A DNA stretch of 32,000 bases. It comes from Promethearchaeum syntrophicum. GTDB lineage: Archaea > Asgardarchaeota > Lokiarchaeia > Sigyniarchaeales > Promethearchaeaceae. Position 1 is the first letter of the stretch; each line of letters opens with the position of its first letter. Positions 3,676 to 14,643 of this stretch are shown here, one piece after another. Both the position numbers and the translations under genes were made by a program. The notes beneath the pieces are model-generated. The model did not search any database. It was not told the DNA's origin and saw nothing but the letters and a program-made list of their open reading frames with translations. The stretch lies in assembly GCF_008000775.2 (NCBI RefSeq), contig NZ_CP042905.2, positions 1,290,001-1,322,000 of the forward strand, in the 5' to 3' direction.

Positions 3676-4485
3676 ATGGGTAAAAAGAAAAAATCGCATA
3701 GGCAAAAACGAGGGTATCCAATAGGACTCATAATTGGATTTGAATCTATGCAAATTAATATTTGGAAAGTTTTTAGCGAACGTGTCCTAATCTTCAAAGT
3801 GAGAAAACTCGGTCGCAAATTTGAAAATGCTCAAAAATCACATTTATATCACTTCTTTGAAGATATTATTAACGATTTAAGACCAATAATGAAAGAAGGA
3901 ATCAAAAGCATATTACTGGTTTGCCCTTTGAAAAAAGATTATGCTTCATTATTCCTCAATCATATAAAATCCCATCACAAATGGTTGATTCTTGAAAAAA
4001 ATATCAATTCCGCATCATTTCAAATATTACATGGTTCAGTTAGAGACTTAGAAGAAGTCTCCTCTTTTATTCAAACCGATCAATATCTTGAAGCAATTGG
4101 CTCTGTCACTGAAAAAGAAACTAATCGCATTATAGAAACGTTAGAAAAACGTCTAAATGATCTCGAAAATGGCTTGGTTTTGTATACTTTAAAAGAAATT
4201 GAAGAAATAGTTTATTCAGGAGGGAAGCGAAAAAAAAAATTCAAGCCTCTTTCTTTGATTCCTGAGCATATTTTATTCACCAATTCTTTTATCGACGAAA
4301 ATCCACAGAAAAATCGAATCCATCGTTTAATTCAGATTGCAAAAAATCGACAAATAATTTCCAAGATCATTGATTCTGAAACTCCTGCTGGCATAAGAAT
4401 TAACCAATTAGGAGGAATTGTATGCTTTTTACTGGTAAAATCAGATTATGAGAAGAAAATAGGTCAAAAAATTATTGATCGATAA
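3676..4485 (+). CDS. Pelota/eRF1-fold protein (central and C-terminal domains only; no N-terminal domain, no GGQ)
   Basis: By-eye colinearity with Pelota domains 2-3: IGLIIGFESMQINIW; HLYHFFEDIINDLRPIMKEGIKSILLVCPLKKDYASLF (compare ...SIIILGPGF...); TEKETNRIIETLEKRL...GLVLYTLKEIEEIV; C-terminal LGGIVCFLL (compare FGGxAGILRY). Confidence 0.5.
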   Translation: MGKKKKSHRQKRGYPIGLIIGFESMQINIWKVFSERVLIFKVRKLGRKFENAQKSHLYHFFEDIINDLRPIMKEGIKSILLVCPLKKDYASLFLNHIKSHHKWLILEKNINSASFQILHGSVRDLEEVSSFIQTDQYLEAIGSVTEKETNRIIETLEKRLNDLENGLVLYTLKEIEEIVYSGGKRKKKFKPLSLIPEHILFTNSFIDENPQKNRIHRLIQIAKNRQIISKIIDSETPAGIRINQLGGIVCFLLVKSDYEKKIGQKIIDR

Positions 4486-4512
4486 TTTGGAAAGGTAACA
4501 CAAAAAATATAT

Positions 4513-4526
4513 AAAAAAAAAAAAAA
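4513..4526 (-). terminator. Oligo-T tract (T14 on the minus strand) just downstream of the SDR stop codon
   Basis: A14 on the plus strand at 4513-4526. The SDR stop is at 4530-4532 on the minus strand. Archaeal RNAP terminates at oligo-T tracts. Confidence 0.5.
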
Positions 4527-4529
4527 TTA

Positions 4530-5345
4530 TTAAAGCCCGTCCATTTTCCCGCCGTTAATTGGGATGAGAGAACCATTAATAAAATATGCCCCTTCACTAC
4601 ATAGAAAACACACAGGATCACTTACATAGGATGTTTGACCAATTCCAAAAGGTATACGACCATCATAATATTTCTTAAATTTACCTTCATCTTTTTCAAG
4701 AAGTTCTCCTAAGATAGGGGTATCTATTAATGTTGGCTTCACTGCATGCGATCGGATATTATATCTCGCCAATTCTTTTGCCATTGTCAACGTCATGCCA
4801 ACTACACCCGCTTTTGATGCTGAATATGCTACTTGTCCTGCATTTCCCTCAGCAGCTAATGATGCAATATTTACAATTACCCGCGGTTTATTCTCAAGAA
4901 CTGGAAGATATTTTTCTCCTTTTTCTTTAGCTTTCGCTCTCGATTCATTAACCCACTTTGTAACAAATGCTTGACTTACTATTGCAACTCCTTTCAAATT
5001 CACATCAATTGTAAAATCCCAAAATTTCTCATTAAATCTGGAAACTAGAAAATCTCGTAAAACCCCTGCGCAATTAATCAAAAAGTCAAAATCTCCAATT
5101 TCTGTCATTGCTTGGGCAACTAATTTCTCAACACCTTCTTTATCGGAAACTGATCCTTTAAGAAAAATCGCTTTTCCATTTCCAGCTTTCTTTAATTCTT
5201 CGACGGTTTTATTTCCTAATTCTTCATTCATATCTAATATCGCTACTGAAGCTCCGTTAGATGCCATATCCATAGCAATTTGACGCCCAATTCCAGATGC
5301 TCCACCAGTAATAAAAGCATTCTTACCTTCAAAATTCCATTTCAT
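4530..5345 (-). CDS. Short-chain dehydrogenase/reductase (classical SDR, FabG / 3-hydroxyacyl-CoA dehydrogenase-like)
   Basis: TGGASGIG cofactor motif, NCAG, and the catalytic YSASK (YxxxK) motif. Length is 271 aa. Confidence 0.9.
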   Translation of the reverse strand: MKWNFEGKNAFITGGASGIGRQIAMDMASNGASVAILDMNEELGNKTVEELKKAGNGKAIFLKGSVSDKEGVEKLVAQAMTEIGDFDFLINCAGVLRDFLVSRFNEKFWDFTIDVNLKGVAIVSQAFVTKWVNESRAKAKEKGEKYLPVLENKPRVIVNIASLAAEGNAGQVAYSASKAGVVGMTLTMAKELARYNIRSHAVKPTLIDTPILGELLEKDEGKFKKYYDGRIPFGIGQTSYVSDPVCFLCSEGAYFINGSLIPINGGKMDGL

Positions 5346-6380: not shown

Positions 6381-6662
6381 ATAGAATTTTGTGAAGATTG
6401 CGGAAATATTTTATTGCCTAAGAAACGAAGCGACGAACTATTTTGTAAAATTTGTCAAAAATCTTTTCCTTTGAAGGAAAAAAAAGACAAAGAAAAGATC
6501 AAGCATTACAAAAGTGCTTCTGATGTAGTTAAAAAGACGAAGGCTAAAAAGAAATTAGCCTTAAAATCATCAACTATTATAGAAGAAATTCGCAAAGCAC
6601 CTTCAATTTCTCAAGATGAACGAGAAGCTTTCGGCGAATTATTTGAAATGAGTGGAGAATAA
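6381..6662 (+). CDS. Small zinc-ribbon protein (TFS / RpoM / Rpb9 N-terminal Zn-ribbon-like) with a Lys-rich tail; start codon unresolved
   Basis: The in-frame sequence upstream of the track's TTG start (6414) reads (I)EFCEDCGNILLPKKRSDELFCKICQ, a complete CxxC...CxxC ribbon matching the FCxxCGNLLxP pattern. The frame is open from 6357, with no ATG, GTG or TTG before 6414. ATA at 6381 is the candidate start. Confidence 0.6.
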   Translation: MEFCEDCGNILLPKKRSDELFCKICQKSFPLKEKKDKEKIKHYKSASDVVKKTKAKKKLALKSSTIIEEIRKAPSISQDEREAFGELFEMSGE

Positions 6663-6670: not shown

Positions 6671-7029
6671 ACTATAAAATAAATTGATTTTGGAGATTTG
6701 AGTTTTTTAAAAGTTTATCAAATTTATTTAGGATCCCTTATCAAACTAAAAGATCTTTAGAGACAAATGTTTTTTGAGCAATTTCCTAAGGTTATAGTTG
6801 GAAATATCAGAAAATGAATCCAAAGTCTCCTAATTTAAAATTTACATTTTTAGTCTCAATTTTGTCCAAATGGGATCAACATAATAAACATAATCATCAA
6901 ATCCTCTTTCAAATAATACTCAAATAAGATTTTTTTGTTATGCTCAAGAAAAACTTTGGAGAACTGTCACTTTGACAGAAATGTGAATAATTACTGATCT
7001 ATTTATTAATTGAAAAAAAATTAATTTGT

Positions 7030-7707
7030 TTAGAGAAAGAAATCACTATCATCATCTAAATCATCTTGATCATCAAAAGATTGAATATTAATGAATAAAT
7101 CATAATCAAAAATGTTTTGAATTAGTGAGCGGAGCGAATTTTTCACCATTTTTATATCTTTCATTCCAAGACCAATGATTTTAGAATTTGAGAAAATTAA
7201 AAATGTTCCTCCGGTTGGCGGTTTTACAATTGCAGCAGGAAATTGTTCAGGTTCATAAAGACAATTGGTTAAAGTTAAACAGGCCATTTCTAAATTTATT
7301 AAACGCTTCAATTGACTCATAACAACAAGATTTTGAATTTTAATTTGAAATTCAGTAAAATTAATTTCTGCTTTTGCTAAGCGATCTATAATTTTTTCTT
7401 TGATGCTTGGAATTTTTTTCTGTTCTTTAATGCCAGTTATAATGAGTTTCCCATTTCGGAACAAAATCACAGATATATTATCAATCTTAAACATTACACA
7501 AGGGAATCGATTTAAACGTTTTACCTCAATCCTTTTTTCTACTTCGTTAAAATCTATTCTTTTTTCCCCCTCTAATTCCAAAATACCTAATGCCACAATA
7601 TTAATGATTTTGTAAGGAAAGTTGCTATTTGCCTCATTCTCTTCAAATTCTTCAATTTCACCTGCGTAAACAGAAATTGTTTGGTCCGGGATTTCAAGAA
7701 GTGCCAT
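7030..7707 (-). CDS. Divergent TATA-box-binding protein paralogue with acidic N- and C-terminal extensions
   Basis: Two TBP repeats: NRFPCVMFKIDNISVILFRNGKLIITG and YEPEQFPAAIVKPPTGGTFLIFSNSKIIGLG. Acidic tail DDQDDLDDDSDFFL. The first repeat is much less canonical than in the paralogue at 11808-12521. Confidence 0.8.
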   Translation of the reverse strand: MALLEIPDQTISVYAGEIEEFEENEANSNFPYKIINIVALGILELEGEKRIDFNEVEKRIEVKRLNRFPCVMFKIDNISVILFRNGKLIITGIKEQKKIPSIKEKIIDRLAKAEINFTEFQIKIQNLVVMSQLKRLINLEMACLTLTNCLYEPEQFPAAIVKPPTGGTFLIFSNSKIIGLGMKDIKMVKNSLRSLIQNIFDYDLFINIQSFDDQDDLDDDSDFFL

Positions 7708-8238
7708 TTTGTTTATTCTCCTTCTTCTTTTTTAATTTTTTATTTTTAATTGAACAAAGAACAGGTTCAATTTTTAATTTTCAAATTCAATGATTAAAAA
7801 AGAGAATTTGTTTTGTATATTAAAAAATACTTATTTCACAATATATATGTTTCGGACAACTTACAAGATTTCCAATATATTCTTAGAATCTTTTTGTTAA
7901 TATTCTAAATAAGAACTGATGAGAAATAGGTTTATAGAATTGATGGATATTCTTCGGTAAATATAAAAAAATCAATTTTCTTATATAAAACAAAAAATAT
8001 GACCTATCCGAGTAGTGTCTGAAAGAGATTTTGATGATCAGGTTCTGTAATTTGTTTCTGTTCCGACATAATTGAGACATTAAACAGAAATTTTAAAATT
8101 TGAGCCTTTGGTTTCTTAAGTTGCATATTTCCGGTGACAACAGAAGGAAATTGCTCAAAAAATTGTTTATCTCTAAACCTTCTATAAAATAAGGAAAATT
8201 ATTATCAATAAGTTGAAATAATTTATAACTGAACTAAT

Positions 8239-8661
8239 ATGGAAAAAATAAAAAAAATAGAAATTAAGCAAAAATTGAACGAACACAAACTGTGGCTTAA
8301 TGGAGAGGCTTCCTCCGGAAAACAAGCTGATTTTTCTGGACTGATGATTAAAATTGCTAATTTTCGAGAAGCTCAATTATCTAAGGCTAATTTCTCAGAT
8401 TCAATCCTAAAAATTGTTGAATTTGTAAAGGCTGATATGCAAAACGCGAATTTTCAAAATACTGAACTTATAAAAGTGGATTTTCATGATGCTAATATGA
8501 ATGGTGTAAATTTCAAAGGAACCAAGTTTCGGAAAGTACATATTAATGAAGAAGATTTCAATAAAATGCAGGATGAATTAACAGAAGATCAAAAACGGGG
8601 CATTATCACCTCATATAAGAAATTTATGCGAAAAATGATTTTTAAAAAAAAAATTCAATAA
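8239..8661 (+). CDS. Pentapeptide-repeat protein
   Basis: LNEHKLWLNGEASSGKQADFSGL, followed by tandem A(D/N)LxX-type pentapeptides (ANFREAQLSKANFSDSILKIVEFVKADMQNANFQNTELIKVDFHDANMNGVNFKGTKF). Confidence 0.85.
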   Translation: MEKIKKIEIKQKLNEHKLWLNGEASSGKQADFSGLMIKIANFREAQLSKANFSDSILKIVEFVKADMQNANFQNTELIKVDFHDANMNGVNFKGTKFRKVHINEEDFNKMQDELTEDQKRGIITSYKKFMRKMIFKKKIQ

Positions 8662-8802
8662 TTACATCCAGTGGATATAAACTGTATTTGTGAATTTTTC
8701 CTATTAAATCTGAATTTAGATTTTCTATTTTTTTTTCAATTTCTTTTCTTGTCCAAATTAAATAGAATAATTAAAATTTTGATGAATATTAATTTTATAA
8801 TA

Positions 8803-9261
8803 ATGCCTCGTGCTCATTCAGAAAAAAATGAACCTAATCAAAAAGAAATACTGGGGAAAATTGCCCAGATCAAGGAGATGAATAGTAATTTCCTAAATCT
8901 TATTGGGAAACTTGAATACATTCCCAGAGATAAATTGGTCGAATTGGATTATTTAAAAAAATGTGAGAAGCATGCACCGTGGTTAGAGAAATCATTAAAA
9001 CTTAAGAATAAAAATGGAGAAATTATTGAAGAAAATGAAATGGAGGATATTTTATCCGATAGGCAAAATCTATTAAAAAAACTGTTAGTAAATATAGAAT
9101 CTTCTCCTAAGAAGCGAAACCAATTCATTAAACAGTTTTTAGAGCAAAATTCTTTAATAGAAAAAGCAGATAGAGAAATACTGATCAAAAGCTATGAAAG
9201 TCTTTCCAGTGAAAAGCTAGAAAAGGAGCTTAATAACATTTTAGAAATTTTTGGAAAGTGA
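8803..9261 (+). CDS. Hypothetical alpha-helical protein (152 aa from the ATG at 8803)
   Basis: The track ORF begins at GTG 8671, but its first 44 codons are F/L/I/N-rich like AT-rich spacer. The charged helical protein MPRAHSEKNEP... starts at ATG 8803. Confidence 0.5.
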   Translation: MPRAHSEKNEPNQKEILGKIAQIKEMNSNFLNLIGKLEYIPRDKLVELDYLKKCEKHAPWLEKSLKLKNKNGEIIEENEMEDILSDRQNLLKKLLVNIESSPKKRNQFIKQFLEQNSLIEKADREILIKSYESLSSEKLEKELNNILEIFGK

Positions 9262-9297
9262 GATTACTTAAAGAAGTGAAATTGAAGAAATTGAGGA

Positions 9298-10371
9298 ATG
9301 TTCATGGACATAGGTAAAGCAATTGCTGAATTAAAAAAATTTATTGGCATTTTAGAGAAAAACTCTACATCCTCTTCATCTTCTTCAAAATTCATATTCC
9401 ATCGTTACCTTGGAGGGAATTTAGACTCAATAGACTCGAAAATAGGAGAGATATTCTTTATTTTACAATCTTCGATAACAATGTCTAAAGAAGGACTGAC
9501 TTCTACGGAAGTAAATAAAATTATAGACCATAAAATTCATTCTAATTCATTTTTACTACCCTCAGATTCAGAATTTACTCCAATTCTAAATTATTTTTTT
9601 AGAAATCGAGATGAATTTACTAAAGAACAAAATGAAATAATCTCATTTTTGCATGAAAAAATACAAAATCTTCAAAATTCTATCTGGATTGAAAATAGCA
9701 ACGTTTTTTCTTTTGGAAATAGGAATTCAATTCAACCTGATTGTACAATCAATTTTATGGAAAAAAATGATAATTTAGCGTTTATTTTCCAAATAAACAA
9801 TCTCAATTTACTATTCAATGAATCCAAAGAGATTAGTATTCTAAATAAAAAAATATCTCTTTTAAATAAAAAAATTGAGAGAAATCATCGAAAAGAAAAT
9901 GTTGAAAAAACATTTGAAGACAAGCAAGAATCCTACGAAAAAACTATCCAAAAATTAAACAATGATTTAATTTCTACAAAAAATGAATTCAAATCGAAAA
10001 TTGCTCAATTGTATCAAAATTTACAACGTATAGAATCTGAAAACGCAGAATCTATTTCAGAAAATAAGCAATTAAAACTTGAAAATCAAAATTTTCGGGA
10101 ATCAATTCAAAAATTAGAGGAAGAGTGTCAAAATTTAAAAGACGAAAAAGACGTTTTTAATGAAGAAAACGAGATGCTAAGAGAAAATATCGAAGAAAGT
10201 AACCTTAAGATTTCGGATTTATCGGAAGAAATAAAAAATCTTGAAATCTTAAATTCTGAACTCAAAAGTTCTAATACTGAACTTTCTGATAAAAATGAAG
10301 CACTTGAAGTTAAAATTAAAAAGAAAATCTTGAAGATCAAGGAAATCTTAAATGAATGGACGAGTAACTAG
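9298..10371 (+). CDS. Globular-head plus long C-terminal coiled-coil protein (paralogue A)
   Basis: The N-terminal ~185 aa are globular. Residues ~185-357 are continuous heptad-like E/K/N/L-rich sequence (KLENQNFRESIQKLEEECQNLKDEKDVFNEENEMLRENIEE...). TGAGGA abuts ATG 9298, so ATG 9304 has better Shine-Dalgarno spacing and is an alternative start. Confidence 0.7.
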   Translation: MFMDIGKAIAELKKFIGILEKNSTSSSSSSKFIFHRYLGGNLDSIDSKIGEIFFILQSSITMSKEGLTSTEVNKIIDHKIHSNSFLLPSDSEFTPILNYFFRNRDEFTKEQNEIISFLHEKIQNLQNSIWIENSNVFSFGNRNSIQPDCTINFMEKNDNLAFIFQINNLNLLFNESKEISILNKKISLLNKKIERNHRKENVEKTFEDKQESYEKTIQKLNNDLISTKNEFKSKIAQLYQNLQRIESENAESISENKQLKLENQNFRESIQKLEEECQNLKDEKDVFNEENEMLRENIEESNLKISDLSEEIKNLEILNSELKSSNTELSDKNEALEVKIKKKILKIKEILNEWTSN

Positions 10372-10382
10372 AGGTTATTAAT

Positions 10383-11798
10383 ATGACGCGTGAAGCAATC
10401 AATAAATTATATGATATTTATCAAAAAATTAATAGTTTTAAAAAAATCACTCCGGGATTTGGATTCTTTTTCAAACGTTATGAAATCAAAGGTAAGAATT
10501 CATTCTTACTTGTTGTTATGGAACCCCCTCATTATCGCACAAAAGGTAAACTCAAAGATTTTGAAAAAGTTATAAATAAAAGTCTTTCTCGTAATAAATT
10601 AATTTTACCGAAAGATTTCCCTTATCTTTACAATTATCTATTAACAGAATTCAATCAATATATTACACCTAGAGATGAAATTCTTAACAAAATAAAACGT
10701 ATAATTGCCAGTTTAAGATTAAACTTTTTTGAAGATACTAATATGAAATATTCCTTTATTTCTAGCATGTTCCCCGAGATTATTGTTTTTGATACGGTTA
10801 GTCAAAAAGGCCAATTTGCTATATATTTTAATATAGTAAATTTAGTTGAAGATGGTTTAATTTTAGCACATGAAAGGCAATTAAATTTTCTATACGAACA
10901 AATAGAAAGGGGAGTAAATCCAACAAGTATAGTTGATACAGATCTACCAGATTTACGTAGTGGAAATACAGCATTTTCATTCTCAAGAAATAAAAATAGA
11001 CAAAAATCCAGAGAAAAAAGGGGGGCTGTTAAAAAATTCCGACAAGTTGTTAATAAAAAGGTATCTAAAGAAGAAATTGAGACAGAACTTGATTACGAAA
11101 CAGTCATAGATTTCAATCCGAGTCAAAAAACAAAGAAAAATATTGGAAATGAAAAGAAATTAGTTAGAAAAGGATTATTTGGTCAACCTTTACCTGCTAG
11201 TTTGAAAAATAGTGAAAAAACCATACCACAATCTAAATCGGAACCTGTAACTGATCCTATACCTCCTATCGATTCTTCCGCACCCGATTTTAATGATCAA
11301 ACAATTATTACCAAGCAATCCAACCTTGCGGTACTTGAAGAGCTTGAGAAAAAAATTGATATTTTAGAGAAAGAAAATATTGATTTAGATGAGATTAAAG
11401 ATAAAAATGACCTTCTTGTTAACCAAATTACTCAAATTACAGATGAATTGACCACAAAACTCCAAGAAAAAGATAACCAATTAAAAGAAATAAAAATTCA
11501 GTTAGAGAAAGAACAGAATATTAGGAAAAACCTAGAAATTGAAATTCAGAGAATAGAACAAGAAAAAAATGTTGCTTTTGATGCAATAGAGGAGCAAGTT
11601 CAAGATTTAGTTGATGAAAACGCCTCCTTATTAAAATCTATTGAAAAAAATGAATTAACTCGAAAAGAATTGGAATTGATTATAGAAGAGATAAAAAATG
11701 CAAGAATTAAAGATGAAGAAATAAACAATGAAATTATTACTACATTGAAAGAAGAAATTCAAATTTTAAATAAAAAGATTAATAATGAAAGAGAGTAA
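10383..11798 (+). CDS. Globular-head plus basic/Pro-rich linker plus C-terminal coiled-coil protein (paralogue B)
   Basis: GAGGT Shine-Dalgarno-like motif 7 nt upstream of the ATG. The head aligns with paralogue A (FFFKRY/FIFHRY; LILPKDFPYLYNYLL/FLLPSDSEFTPILNYFF; FAIYFNIVNLV/LAFIFQINNLN). C-terminal ~160-aa coiled coil. Confidence 0.7.
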   Translation: MTREAINKLYDIYQKINSFKKITPGFGFFFKRYEIKGKNSFLLVVMEPPHYRTKGKLKDFEKVINKSLSRNKLILPKDFPYLYNYLLTEFNQYITPRDEILNKIKRIIASLRLNFFEDTNMKYSFISSMFPEIIVFDTVSQKGQFAIYFNIVNLVEDGLILAHERQLNFLYEQIERGVNPTSIVDTDLPDLRSGNTAFSFSRNKNRQKSREKRGAVKKFRQVVNKKVSKEEIETELDYETVIDFNPSQKTKKNIGNEKKLVRKGLFGQPLPASLKNSEKTIPQSKSEPVTDPIPPIDSSAPDFNDQTIITKQSNLAVLEELEKKIDILEKENIDLDEIKDKNDLLVNQITQITDELTTKLQEKDNQLKEIKIQLEKEQNIRKNLEIEIQRIEQEKNVAFDAIEEQVQDLVDENASLLKSIEKNELTRKELELIIEEIKNARIKDEEINNEIITTLKEEIQILNKKINNERE

Positions 11799-11807
11799 TG
11801 CATCCGC

Positions 11808-12521
11808 CTATAAATCTAAAATATCCAGATCTTTTTCTTCTTTCATCCCATTTTCTCCCAGAACGCCATTATCCTTAAGAGTAATTGCAAGTTTTTTTAC
11901 TGATTTTTTTATTATATCTTCGTTATTAGACCCAGTCACAATTATTCTCCCTGAGCTAAAAATTAAAAAACATATTTTTGGATCTGCAATCTTATAAATT
12001 AAACCTGGAAATACTTCAGGTTCATAGATGGCTGAGTCAAGAATCAATGATGTGATGTCTAAATTTATCGATTGGTGAAAATCTCCACGAACAACGATAT
12101 TTTCAATTTTAACAATAGGTTCTTCTTCAATTTTAATTCCGGCTTTCTCAATTCTGCCAACAATTTTGGAAACCACTATGGGAATATCTCTAGGCAATCT
12201 TACACCTGTACATACTAGCTTACCTGATGCAAAAATTAAGATTGTAGCTTTAGGTATATTAATTTTAGCAACTAGACCAGGGAAATTATTTTTTTTTTCA
12301 ATATCTTTGTATTTTTCTAGTATTTTTTCAAGAGAAAGTTCAATGCCTAAATTGATAGAGGCAACAACATTCTCAATTCGAAGAGAAACTTTGTTTTTCT
12401 TTGAAATTGAGCTTGTTTTTTGATCTTGAATGGATGTTTTTCCCAATAAATTCTCCCCTAAAATGGAAGTTTTTTTGAACGAATAAGGATTTGGGTTGAG
12501 AAAAATTGGAACTAGACACAT
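11808..12521 (-). CDS. tbp: TATA-box-binding protein (canonical archaeal TBP core, ~55-aa N-terminal extension, acidic tail)
   Basis: LRIENVVASINLG..., FPGLVAKINIPKATILIFASGKLVCTG, IENIVVRGDF..., YEPEVFPGLIYKIADPKICFLIFSSGRIIVTG. Tail EEKDLDILDL. The N-terminal start is uncertain; an internal TTG is possible. Confidence 0.9.
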   Translation of the reverse strand: MCLVPIFLNPNPYSFKKTSILGENLLGKTSIQDQKTSSISKKNKVSLRIENVVASINLGIELSLEKILEKYKDIEKKNNFPGLVAKINIPKATILIFASGKLVCTGVRLPRDIPIVVSKIVGRIEKAGIKIEEEPIVKIENIVVRGDFHQSINLDITSLILDSAIYEPEVFPGLIYKIADPKICFLIFSSGRIIVTGSNNEDIIKKSVKKLAITLKDNGVLGENGMKEEKDLDILDL

Positions 12522-12587: not shown

Positions 12588-13121
12588 TTATTTTTCATCA
12601 ATTTCATTAATCAAAAAATCTGCAATATAGTTGAATATAGAATCAATATTTTCCCCCGATTTGGCTGAACTATAAAAAATTTTTGTATTTTTATAAATTT
12701 TCTCCAAATCTTCAATAGATTTTTGTAAATCTTTTAAATCTATAAGGTCAGACTTGTTTACTACGATAATATAAGGGCAATTTGGAGGGCTGTTTGCTTT
12801 AACATCTGTAATCCATGGTTCAATAAAATTTTTTGGCTCTAATCGATTTACATCTACAACAATAATTACCAGGTTAGCATGTTGGAGATAATGACTGCGT
12901 ATCTTCTCAAAATTTCTTTGTGAGGCAATATCCCAAACAACAAGGCCTAAATTTATCTCTTTATTATTTTGGAGGGATTTTTTCTCAATTTCATAAAAAT
13001 CACAGCCTAAGGTCATCAAATAACTATTGGAGAATGTTCCTTGAGTATACCTAATTATAATTGATGTTTTTCCAACACCATCGGAACCAATTAAACAAAT
13101 TTTTTTTTTCCAAGTTTCCAT
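12588..13121 (-). CDS. Rab/Ras-like small GTPase (177 aa, no C-terminal Cys lipidation motif)
   Basis: G1 GSDGVGKT. Switch I TLGCDF (Rab-like TIGxDF). G3 WDIASQ. G4 NKSD. G5 SAK. Confidence 0.9.
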   Translation of the reverse strand: METWKKKICLIGSDGVGKTSIIIRYTQGTFSNSYLMTLGCDFYEIEKKSLQNNKEINLGLVVWDIASQRNFEKIRSHYLQHANLVIIVVDVNRLEPKNFIEPWITDVKANSPPNCPYIIVVNKSDLIDLKDLQKSIEDLEKIYKNTKIFYSSAKSGENIDSIFNYIADFLINEIDEK

Positions 13122-13149: not shown

Positions 13150-14643
13150 TTATACTATCGGAATCAAACTAATCTGCGGATAACCCAAAGAGAAATCGTT
13201 TTCCATATAATATAACTGTGTTCGGGGTTTTATTCCATATATAAAAATTGCACCGTTTTGTTCGAGAATCTTTAAATGGGTATCCGCCACATAAGATAAA
13301 TCATTTGTAAGTGTACCTAAAGGAGATGATGCATTGATTGCTGAACGTGTTGAATTTATTATGCCTAACTCTATTACATTACTATTTCTGATTTTCGTAA
13401 TATGTTCGTCGAATTTACTGATTGCTTTATTAAAATCTACCATAAAAGTTAAAGTATTATATGAAACTGCGGCAAAAACTGGTTGAAATTTCGTAATACT
13501 TGATAATTTTGCATACGTATCAAAAAAGATTTCGTTAAAATTCTCTTTGTCAATTTGTGTTATATATGGTCTTATTTCATTTCGATCTGATAATTTTTCC
13601 ATCAAAATTCGCATGTTTTTGCTTATCGCATCAGTTTTTAGATGTAAAAATAATCTTTTCTTATCAATCAATTCAGAATTTATACCGTCTGTTGTATGGA
13701 CAATTATACCTCGATTTTGCTGAATATAATTACATATCATCGCAATTACTATTGGAGAATATGATGTAATAGGTACATTAGATTCTATTTCTAAGAGATT
13801 AAATGTCCCTTGTTTAAGACCTCCATGATAAAGGCGATCTAAAGATTTATTTCCTGTTGAAAACAGATCATCTGTATCGGAAGTTGTATTCCAAGGAAGA
13901 ATTTCAGTGGGTTTAATATCTTGGAATGGTTTTAAATATTGAAATTTATTATTAAAGAGAGTAAAAACATATTTTTTTTGATTTCTCTCAATTGCTCGAA
14001 TTTTATTAACTTCAATGGTGCGAATAGTTCTTCCATCTACTGAATCATCACGAAGAGTAAAAATACCATCTACAATATAATCCAAAAATCCAATTTCATC
14101 AGATTCCGCGATTAATATCAGTTTGGCATTTGTTTGTCTAACGAATTCTGAAAAGAGAGTCTCAATATTTTCCTTATTTTCACCTTCTTGACCCATAATA
14201 GCATCCCATGAATCTATAACAATAATTGGATGTTCATATTGTGCAATTTTCTCATAGACTATTTTTAAAAATTCTGGAATAGAAGAAAAACGAATTGTTC
14301 TCATTAGATGGGCTTTCATTAGTGTTCCATCGGGATCTTGTCGATTGGCAGGAGGAATATATGTTCTTGTTGCATCAATAATGTTTTCAGTTTTTAACCG
14401 TTTTTTCAACCAAGGAAATTGAGAAAAAAGACTTAGGGGAGCTACTCTCGTGGATAAATAAATTGGCTCGAAATCCTTGAAAACATCAAGTAGAGTTAAA
14501 GCAAAGGTTGTTTTCCCTGCTCCCGCTTTCCCTTTAAGAAGGATATTATAGCCCGTATCTTTTAATTCGAAGGCATCCATGATTTCGGGAGGAATTATAT
14601 TTTTTCGATAAATCTTCGCACCCTTACTTTTTTTTGCATTCAT
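13150..14643 (-). CDS. Two-domain KaiC/GvpD/RAD55-family RecA-like ATPase (second domain lacks a P-loop)
   Basis: Domain 1 has Walker A GKAGAGKTT and Walker B-like IIVIDSWDAI. Domain 2 starts with STGNKSLDRLYHGGLKQGTFNLLEIESNVPITSYSP, which keeps the KaiC-like lead-in but has no GxxxxGK[ST]. Only 28 nt separate it from the GTPase gene, with no oligo-T. Confidence 0.75.
   Translation of the reverse strand: MNAKKSKGAKIYRKNIIPPEIMDAFELKDTGYNILLKGKAGAGKTTFALTLLDVFKDFEPIYLSTRVAPLSLFSQFPWLKKRLKTENIIDATRTYIPPANRQDPDGTLMKAHLMRTIRFSSIPEFLKIVYEKIAQYEHPIIVIDSWDAIMGQEGENKENIETLFSEFVRQTNAKLILIAESDEIGFLDYIVDGIFTLRDDSVDGRTIRTIEVNKIRAIERNQKKYVFTLFNNKFQYLKPFQDIKPTEILPWNTTSDTDDLFSTGNKSLDRLYHGGLKQGTFNLLEIESNVPITSYSPIVIAMICNYIQQNRGIIVHTTDGINSELIDKKRLFLHLKTDAISKNMRILMEKLSDRNEIRPYITQIDKENFNEIFFDTYAKLSSITKFQPVFAAVSYNTLTFMVDFNKAISKFDEHITKIRNSNVIELGIINSTRSAINASSPLGTLTNDLSYVADTHLKILEQNGAIFIYGIKPRTQLYYMENDFSLGYPQISLIPIV

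Follow-up and report, generated by a model that had tools for sequence, protein, structure and literature searches.

The combination of a globular head, a disordered linker and a coiled coil is familiar among proteins, and several described systems come close to the proteins reported here. These are the products of S, A and B, three co-oriented genes encoding proteins of 152, 357 and 471 amino acids (aa) in a 32,000-nucleotide (nt) stretch of the Promethearchaeum syntrophicum genome (contig NZ_CP042905.2, positions 1,290,001 to 1,322,000), which we call the window and whose G+C content is low (26-38%). Like Ndc80 and Nuf2, A and B are paralogues with an N-terminal globular head and a long coiled-coil-type tail, and a non-enzymatic scaffolding role would be common to both systems. 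With the roadblock/LC7 proteins (MglB, LAMTOR) and the longins they share a small alpha/beta sandwich head that has flanking helices and is likely dimeric, as well as a Ras-like gene nearby. The predicted path of the head, which runs from an N-capping helix through two strands, three helices and a further series of strands (b-b-b) to a C-terminal helix leading towards the coil, resembles that of PAS/GAF sensors with coiled coils. Long heptad-periodic helices are shared with crescentin, other coiled-coil-rich proteins (CCRPs) and eukaryotic intermediate filaments.

The reading that we favor, with middling confidence, is that S-(A)-B is a soluble, non-enzymatic coiled-coil adaptor or scaffold specific to Lokiarchaeia, with B as its core. 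In this model, two copies of B would pair through their C-terminal helices (~155 residues) in a parallel coiled coil ~23 nm long that presents two compact alpha/beta heads and two flexible linkers of ~125 residues. Each linker would recruit partners through a basic patch and a set of short motifs (LPxLRTGxT, KFRxxxKQKK-ETVIDF, LFGxPLP and a PKPAP-like stretch). A is an old duplicate in which the head runs straight into the coil with no such linker between them, and S is the constant small helical partner. Given that several lineages do without A, this protein most likely dimerizes with itself or modulates B, and would not be one half of an obligate heterodimer.

Paralogous heads and a restricted gene family

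The initial annotation of this DNA had aligned the N-terminal domains of A and B by eye, and the pairwise comparison that it proposed bears out their relationship. The heads align by BLASTP with 21% identity over 159 aa (residues 32-186 of A on 28-174 of B, E = 2e-4), and the tails give no significant BLASTP alignment. When head-only profiles were compared with HHalign, the A-type and B-type profiles matched with a probability of 97.6% (E = 4.3e-12, 151 columns), and each also matched the profile of a third subtype, C-type (E = 1.2e-18 for A-type and 5.4e-15 for B-type). These head-only comparisons indicate that the A/B paralogy is real and old. A-type orthologues of other lineages are only ~27% identical to the A protein of the window.

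A joint A/B head profile, run exhaustively with HMMER over 1.84 billion representative proteins, matched only 30 of them, 29 of which are credible. The other (P0037, 1451 aa, E = 1.9e-4) was set aside as a spurious match composed of repeated short matches. Three subtypes are found among the credible members: A-type proteins carry the head fused directly to a coiled coil; in B-type proteins, a conserved extension and then a disordered linker lie between the head and a coiled coil; and in C-type proteins, an acidic linker bearing a GLFGP motif connects the head to a short coil. Wherever the source of a member is named, it is Lokiarchaeota, Promethearchaeum or L. ossiferum; such members include close B relatives in two Promethearchaeum sp. 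metagenome-assembled genomes (MAGs) and one C-type protein annotated from a Ca. Lokiarchaeota MAG. The family is rare in metagenomes, a scan of which gave only two loci. A profile search with S recovered 41 relatives of 134-165 aa, among them NEF87_004171 of Ca. Lokiarchaeum ossiferum and a protein from a Promethearchaeota MAG. As far as is visible from these sequences, the family appears to be restricted to Lokiarchaeia.

We define the S-A-B family by a head of ~170-190 aa that matches the joint A/B profile and is followed by a coiled coil, with S directly upstream, and the window genes show each of these features. A search of the accessible literature returned nothing on NEF87_004170 to NEF87_004173 or on a comparable Lokiarchaeal coiled-coil family. 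These proteins form a new family, apparently undescribed, of a familiar general architecture.

Comparison of the window with 12 related loci reveals that S and B are the constant core of the module. The S-(A)-B order is kept in 11 of the related loci, and wherever the upstream region is visible S lies directly 5′ of A or B, either 10-45 nt away or overlapping it. S is probably translated from the same transcript as A and B; the initial annotation had listed this gene, but its place as the constant small partner of the module had gone unnoticed. Besides the window, A occurs in L001, L004, L006, L008, L009, L010 and L017, and it is missing at the locus in four lineages (L005, L012, L016 and L019), where S is followed directly by B. 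The S protein of L016 is identical to that annotated in L. ossiferum. C-type genes are found in unrelated contexts (L007, L014 and L018).

The A orthologue in L001 (positions 4080-5143, Promethearchaeum MAG CSMAG_2442) is split into a 180-aa head open reading frame (ORF) and a 143-aa coiled-coil ORF. A frameshift or an assembly error could account for this, or the split could be real; the gene is intact (366 aa) in MAG CSMAG_2396 (L004).

S, A and B diverge faster than all of their neighboring genes. Between the window and L016, identity is 72% for the canonical TBP, 70% for a CoA ligase, 65% for a TBP-like protein, 63% for a GvpD-like ATPase, 55% for GDPD and 51% for the Ras-like GTPase, compared with 45% for the B head, 37% for B overall and ~25% for S. 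Such rates are typical of structural and adaptor proteins, and the fast divergence of the three genes fits a role of this kind.

The window had been described as carrying a four-gene operon that begins with a pentapeptide-repeat gene. All four ORFs are present where they were placed, the match of the first to PF00805 exceeds the curated cut-off, and the gaps of 36 nt between S and A and 11 nt between A and B are as reported. However, the unit is S-A-B: the pentapeptide-repeat gene is separated from S by 141 nt and has no counterpart by tblastn in any of the 12 related loci. It is a window-specific gene that lies beside an inversion breakpoint, outside the conserved module. Operon-like spacing is found only within S-(A)-B and possibly also between a TBP-like gene and S. 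In the window, the promoter of S-A-B presumably lies in the AT-rich 141-nt spacer. A scan for bacterial-type promoters and terminators gave counts equal to the shuffled expectation, and a scan of this kind is not applicable to archaea.

Two of the start codons deserve comment. The mechanically called ORF of S begins at GTG 8671, and its orthologues begin at MPRAH, which corresponds to ATG 8803. For A, just 2 nt separate the Shine-Dalgarno-like GAGG at 9292-9295 from ATG 9298, whereas a second ATG, at 9304, follows the motif at 8 nt. Because the A orthologues all begin at the position equivalent to this second ATG, the true start of A is probably 9304. The GAGG motif upstream of B (10371-10374, plus strand) stands as first noted and lies 8 nt 5′ of the B start. 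This motif overlaps the A stop codon (TAG, 10369-10371), an arrangement that points to coupled translation of the two genes.

The predicted fold of the head

The B head (aa 1-190) was modeled with AlphaFold2 (AF2) from a 31-sequence family alignment, and all five models reached a predicted local distance difference test (pLDDT) score of ~95. The predicted order of elements is a1-b1-b2-a2-a3-a4-b3-b4-b5-b6-a5, with helices at residues 2-17, 57-70, 76-93, 97-112 and 161-175 and strands at 26-35, 38-46, 115-118, 121-125, 132-139 and 145-159. In B-type proteins, the C-terminal extension of the head has the consensus EDGLxLAHERQ ... NPxxI..LPxLRTGxT. The model of the A head, built from seven sequences, has a lower pLDDT of 73.

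Foldseek searches of the PDB with the A and B models returned nothing significant (best E = 0.05, probability 0.23, TM-score 0.29 or less), nor did searches of BFVD (best E = 2e-3, TM-score 0.3 or less). Profile searches of PDB sequences with the head gave no match, and the head has no match in Pfam (31 family members) or NCBIfam. These results, together with the lack of a Walker A motif, uphold the earlier description of the head as unrecognized and free of a P-loop. Two groups of Foldseek matches were dismissed as noise. Phage NF5 neck proteins recurred at the top (E = 0.05-0.6, TM-score 0.29 or less), and GHKL ATPase domains reached a probability of 0.12 or less, with no conserved Bergerat-fold motifs in the head.

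No residue is invariant across A-, B- and C-types, and there is no Cys/His cluster. Neither a Walker A motif nor a transmembrane segment occurs in S, A or B (maximum 19-residue Kyte-Doolittle mean of 1.24), which contain one, two and no cysteines, respectively. These absences point to soluble, non-enzymatic proteins. S has no Pfam, NCBIfam or PDB match, and none of the three proteins falls in a Pfam or NCBIfam family apart from weak, generic coiled-coil matches.

The order of elements in the head brings to mind profilin-like, roadblock or PAS topologies, a likeness that failed every test we ran. It bears on a rival explanation, which we consider doubtful, wherein the module regulates the neighboring Ras-like GTPase or is its effector. 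The heads could pair as in MglB/roadblock or longin dimers to form platforms for GTPase-activating proteins or guanine nucleotide exchange factors (GEFs), or the coiled coil could act like that of the Sec2/Rabin8 GEF or of a Rab-effector tether. The pattern a-b-b-a...b-b-b-a does recall roadblock and profilin-like folds. However, no roadblock, longin or MglB structure is among the 50 PDB Foldseek matches listed for the B model (best E = 0.05), despite its pLDDT of ~95, and Pfam families Robl_LC7 and Longin are not among the matches listed (E up to 1) for the 31 family members. One BLOC-3 chain, which contains longin domains, was matched by the lower-confidence A model with E = 7.9 and a probability of 0.01. 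Moreover, the head is larger (~175-190 aa) than roadblock or longin domains, owing three of its helices to an insertion between b2 and b3.

PAS/GAF domains fared no better. The Foldseek matches comprise one phytochrome and a few histidine-kinase chains (probability 0.12 or less, TM-score 0.2 or less), no such Pfam family is among the listed matches, and, unlike PAS/GAF sensors, the S-A-B proteins have no output domain and no pocket residues conserved across the three subtypes. The heads of Ndc80 and Nuf2 are all-alpha CH domains, whereas the present head is alpha/beta and without a match, and no sequence or structural similarity to that pair was found.

Tails, linker and the partnership of A and B

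The tails of A (173-357) and B (317-471) contain no proline and no glycine, and E, K, Q, L, N and I account for 72-77% of their composition. Relative to shuffled sequences, both display a 3.5-residue hydrophobic periodicity (z = 3.8 for A and 3.4 for B), and AF2 predicts residues 317-470 of B to form one uninterrupted helix with pLDDT above 90. Weak, generic Pfam matches to coiled-coil families (Crescentin rod, HMMR and Cep57) complete the evidence on which the call was made. Together, the periodicity, the model and these matches strongly suggest that both tails are coiled coils, in agreement with the first description of the locus. Tail length is steady among B-type proteins (~155-200 aa), and that of A-type proteins ranges from ~76 aa (P0033, L017) to ~260 aa (P0025, L006).

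The initial annotation went on to suggest that A and B could form a heterodimeric filament, tether or scaffold pair. Read as an obligate heterodimer that either polymerizes in the manner of intermediate filaments or crescentin or forms a long golgin-like tether, this model is in our view distinctly unlikely. The two are adjacent paralogues that are probably translationally coupled, both have long heptad-periodic tails, and the weak Pfam matches named above include the Crescentin rod, HMMR and Cep57. However, the absence of A at the locus in L005, L012, L016 and L019, including the locus that matches L. ossiferum, makes an obligate pair improbable, and the tails of A and B do not covary in length. 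The same B-only loci argue against the heterodimeric arrangement of Ndc80 and Nuf2.

The proposed analogies with intermediate filaments, golgins and SMC proteins likewise found nothing beyond generic coiled-coil matches. The present rods (~23-27 nm) are much shorter than those of intermediate filaments and lack conserved rod subdomains, and a folded head replaces the disordered intermediate filament head. The Rod_CreS model scores 13.1 bits with A against a cut-off of 100 and does not match B, and 3 of the 31 family members match it weakly. A golgin or SNARE tether was rejected on the lack of a hydrophobic segment and of any GRIP-, GRAB- or SNARE-type Pfam match; indeed, no C-terminal GRIP/GRAB-like domain, transmembrane segment or lipid anchor is present. 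Relatives of SMC, Rad50 or MukB were rejected because no Walker A motif is present and the matches are confined to coiled-coil segments. Those to the NCBIfam SMC and Rad50 models and to the PADLOC JetC and LmuB models reach 16-24 bits, compared with cut-offs of 567-1087.

The linker that distinguishes B from A is 126 aa long, has 9 prolines and a pLDDT mostly below 50, and carries a net charge of +10 that lies entirely within aa 197-232. The early description of a basic, proline-containing disordered linker unique to B thus holds, but it made no mention of the conserved short motifs that the linker contains (Table 1), which also include a conserved proline-rich, PKPAP-like stretch. In a set of 12 B-type proteins sharing 28-37% identity with the window B, plus a close orthologue at 74%, several stretches are invariant or nearly so, the LFGxPLP motif and the PKPAP-like stretch among them. 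L188, P189, L191, (R192), G194 and T196, where the head passes into the linker, are invariant or nearly so in B-type proteins. Residues E235, E239, T240, I242 and F244 are invariant across the 12 proteins, and V241 is nearly so. The start of the coil bears the conserved patch QxxQVTDxLTxQLxEKD, in which T353 is invariant and K363 is invariant or nearly so. Since short conserved motifs in disordered regions usually mark places where partners bind, the linker motifs are putative binding sites.

A further comparison is with actin regulators. Lokiarchaeia possess actin, profilin and gelsolin homologues, and, as in the WH2 and poly-proline regions of WASP and VASP, the B linker brings together a basic amphipathic helix with KKV-type residues at its end, PxP stretches and a putatively dimerizing coil. 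However, the spacing of its hydrophobic residues differs from the WH2 consensus. We keep this resemblance as a lead only, given that no Pfam WH2 match is found in any of the 31 family members.

Several considerations weigh against the adaptor reading. Dimerization, the recruitment of partners and the cellular process served are parts of the model that we infer. A single AF2 helix modeled in isolation is no proof of a coiled coil, and the periodicity statistic also scores amphipathic helices, as illustrated by the A head (z = 3.4). The linker motifs could instead fold back onto the head. The head appears to have a fold without a known relative, but this holds relative to the PDB and BFVD libraries only, and for a fold without relatives the lack of a catalytic motif is not provable.

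Table 1. Positions of the module, its domains and neighboring features in the window (nucleotide coordinates refer to the 32,000-nt stretch)
Feature	Position	Strand	Remarks
Inverted segment	6770-8162		Bounded by imperfect inverted repeats of 38 nt, with arms at 6770-6807 and 8125-8162
Divergent TBP paralogue	7030-7707	-	Pfam TBP E = 1.3e-19; acidic tail DDQDDLDDDSDFFL
Pentapeptide-repeat gene	8239-8661	+	140 aa; PF00805 E = 3.9e-15, 55.5 bits vs cut-off 20.2
S	8803-9261	+	152 aa; small helical protein, constant upstream partner in module
A	9298-10371	+	357 aa; head fused straight to coiled-coil tail
A head	about aa 1-172, nt 9298-9813	+	
A tail	aa 173-357, nt 9814-10368	+	Coiled-coil type
B	10383-11798	+	471 aa
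B head	aa 1-190, nt 10383-10952	+	Alpha/beta domain plus B-type-specific C-terminal extension
B linker	aa 191-316, nt 10953-11330	+	Disordered; basic patch and conserved short motifs
Basic/acidic helix KFRxxxKQKK...E	aa 210-238, nt 11010-11096	+	pLDDT 63-77
ETVIDF motif	aa 239-244, nt 11097-11114	+	In B linker
LFGxPLP motif	aa 265-271, nt 11175-11195	+	In B linker
B tail	aa 317-471 plus stop codon, nt 11331-11798	+	Coiled-coil type
Canonical TBP	11808-12521	-	Pfam TBP E = 4e-43
Ras-like small GTPase	12588-13121	-	Pfam Ras E = 8e-30; convergent with module
GvpD/KaiC-like double-domain ATPase	13150-14643	-	GvpD_P-loop E = 1e-18; 28 nt past Ras-like gene

Neighboring genes and candidate cellular roles

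The processes that the putative adaptor might serve are suggested by its conserved neighbors, namely a TBP paralogue upstream and a Ras-like GTPase with a GvpD/KaiC-like ATPase downstream. The recurrent gene order on the left is GDPD (minus), an RPB9/TFS-like zinc-ribbon gene (plus), optionally an SCP2-like gene, the divergent TBP paralogue (plus), S, optionally A, and B. On the right, B is followed by optional cupin, canonical TBP (minus) and RagA-like (minus) genes and then by the Ras-like GTPase (minus), the GvpD/KaiC-like ATPase (minus) and a CoA ligase-like gene (plus). Because the entire block is syntenic, including housekeeping genes such as GDPD and the CoA ligase, the adjacency of the GTPase and TBP genes to the module may be inherited rather than functional.

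The small GTPase gene that had been noted ~0.8 kb downstream on the opposite strand is real, lying 790 nt downstream of B, and is conserved. Its link to the module is suggestive only, given the convergent orientation and the syntenic block. The window and loci L001, L004, L006, L012, L016 and L017 all carry the Ras-like and GvpD-like genes as a pair 3′ of B, and the Ras-like gene alone is visible in L011, where the locus ends early. Wherever the downstream region is visible, the pair is convergent with B. In favor of a regulator or effector of this GTPase, the gene recurs at all eight of these loci, in three of which (L006, L011 and L017) it is within 2-17 nt of the B stop codon, and a second, Gtr1/RagA-like GTPase gene is there in L012 and L016. 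However, the GTPase and module genes lie on opposite strands, a difference also from the roadblock and longin systems, and are not co-transcribed, and the pair is missing from the C-type loci. Moreover, Asgard genomes are rich in small GTPases, and chance adjacency is therefore common.

Some features of the pair itself were also recorded. The GvpD-like ATPase is 63-91% identical across the related loci. The Ras-like GTPase has WDIASQ as its switch II sequence, rather than the usual DxxGQ, in the window, L004 and L006, and has no C-terminal cysteine for lipidation.

A second alternative, to which we likewise give little credence, is that the module has a role in transcription or chromatin organization together with the divergent TBP paralogue, the basic linker of B binding DNA or the head binding the TBP-like protein. 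The divergent paralogue, which the initial annotation had left out, is one of two TBP genes that flank the module in the window, and its matches to NCBIfam TBP models are below the cut-offs. It is normally co-oriented with S, and lies 17-113 nt directly 5′ of it in 8 of the 10 loci in which the upstream region is visible. The shortest gaps, 17 nt in L017 and 21 nt in L019, imply co-transcription. In addition, an RPB9/TFS-like zinc-ribbon gene and the canonical TBP gene lie in the same block, and the +10 net charge of the B linker falls within 36 residues. However, in the window the TBP-like gene is inverted, with another gene between it and S, and it is absent from L006; its co-transcription with S is therefore not required. 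No DNA-binding domain match was found, and this linkage, too, can be inherited synteny. No TBP partner (TFIIA, NC2, Mot1 or the TAFs) is known to have such an architecture. For both the GTPase and the TBP explanations, the evidence at hand is conserved adjacency.

The inversion that sets the window apart is bounded by imperfect inverted repeats (Table 1), and the outer 18 nt of their arms, TTTTTTGAGCAATTTCCT, are perfectly complementary. A 17-mer of this repeat occurs exactly twice in the 32 kb, in opposite orientations, compared with 0.05 copies expected by chance, and in none of the related loci. Relative to L001 and L004, tblastx shows that the TBP-like gene has been inverted together with ~0.5 kb of conserved upstream DNA, which uncouples S-A-B from the TBP paralogue in the window. 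The pentapeptide-repeat gene sits just outside the right-hand repeat arm. The segment may be a recombination scar or may be invertible, and there is no recombinase gene near it.

Between the TBP-like gene and the right arm, window positions 7799-8183 (~385 nt) are conserved with L004 328-712 (55-79% by tblastx). They contain no convincing ORF and have no Rfam match, and may represent a regulatory region, a small gene or an RNA. Further to the left, a small ORF at 6414-6662 (plus strand) has orthologues in L005 and L006, where they are RPB9/TFS-like zinc-ribbon genes (MxFCxxCGN...). In the window ORF as called, the first CxxC is missing, which may reflect an upstream or non-canonical start or an N-terminal truncation. 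In L010 (positions 1-2470, a Promethearchaeum-like contig), the zinc-ribbon gene is inverted and lies directly 3′ of B, indicating that the region has been rearranged more than once in this lineage.

Two further identities for the locus were considered and rejected. The first is an anti-phage defense system. S matches the Septu PtuB model of PADLOC over residues 62-150 (21.7 bits, E = 3.7e-5), but it has one Cys and two His and lacks those expected of an HNH nuclease, and this weak match is probably compositional. The A matches fall in the coiled-coil parts of JetC and LmuB, and the locus is syntenic with housekeeping genes. The second is a mobile element or provirus, which was set aside on the uniform base composition, the lack of tRNA genes and Rfam families, and the metabolic neighbors.

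A broader reading, which we entertain only tentatively, is that S-(A)-B is an unrecognized Lokiarchaeia-specific machine with a new fold. It would be a dimeric stalk-and-head adaptor that couples its neighbors, either the specialized TBP paralogue or the pair of Ras-like GTPase and KaiC/GvpD-like ATPase, through its motif-bearing linkers to a cytoskeletal, membrane or chromatin target. If so, the module would be an organizer invented by Asgard archaea, without a eukaryotic or bacterial counterpart.

Lokiarchaeia are among the few cultured Asgard archaea, and their cell architecture, with its protrusions and actin cytoskeleton, is central to ideas on the origin of eukaryotes. The present analysis defines in this class a conserved, apparently undescribed three-gene module that has a confidently modeled head without a PDB or BFVD match and motif-rich disordered linkers, and that is stably linked to a TBP paralogue and a GTPase/ATPase pair. 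Because the module is present at a locus matching the cultured Ca. Lokiarchaeum ossiferum, and because Promethearchaeum is also in culture, it offers a concrete target for localization and interaction studies. If S-(A)-B is an ordinary lineage-specific scaffold, its wider importance would be limited. If it couples transcription-factor paralogues or small-GTPase signaling to cell structure, Asgard cell biology would gain a new component.

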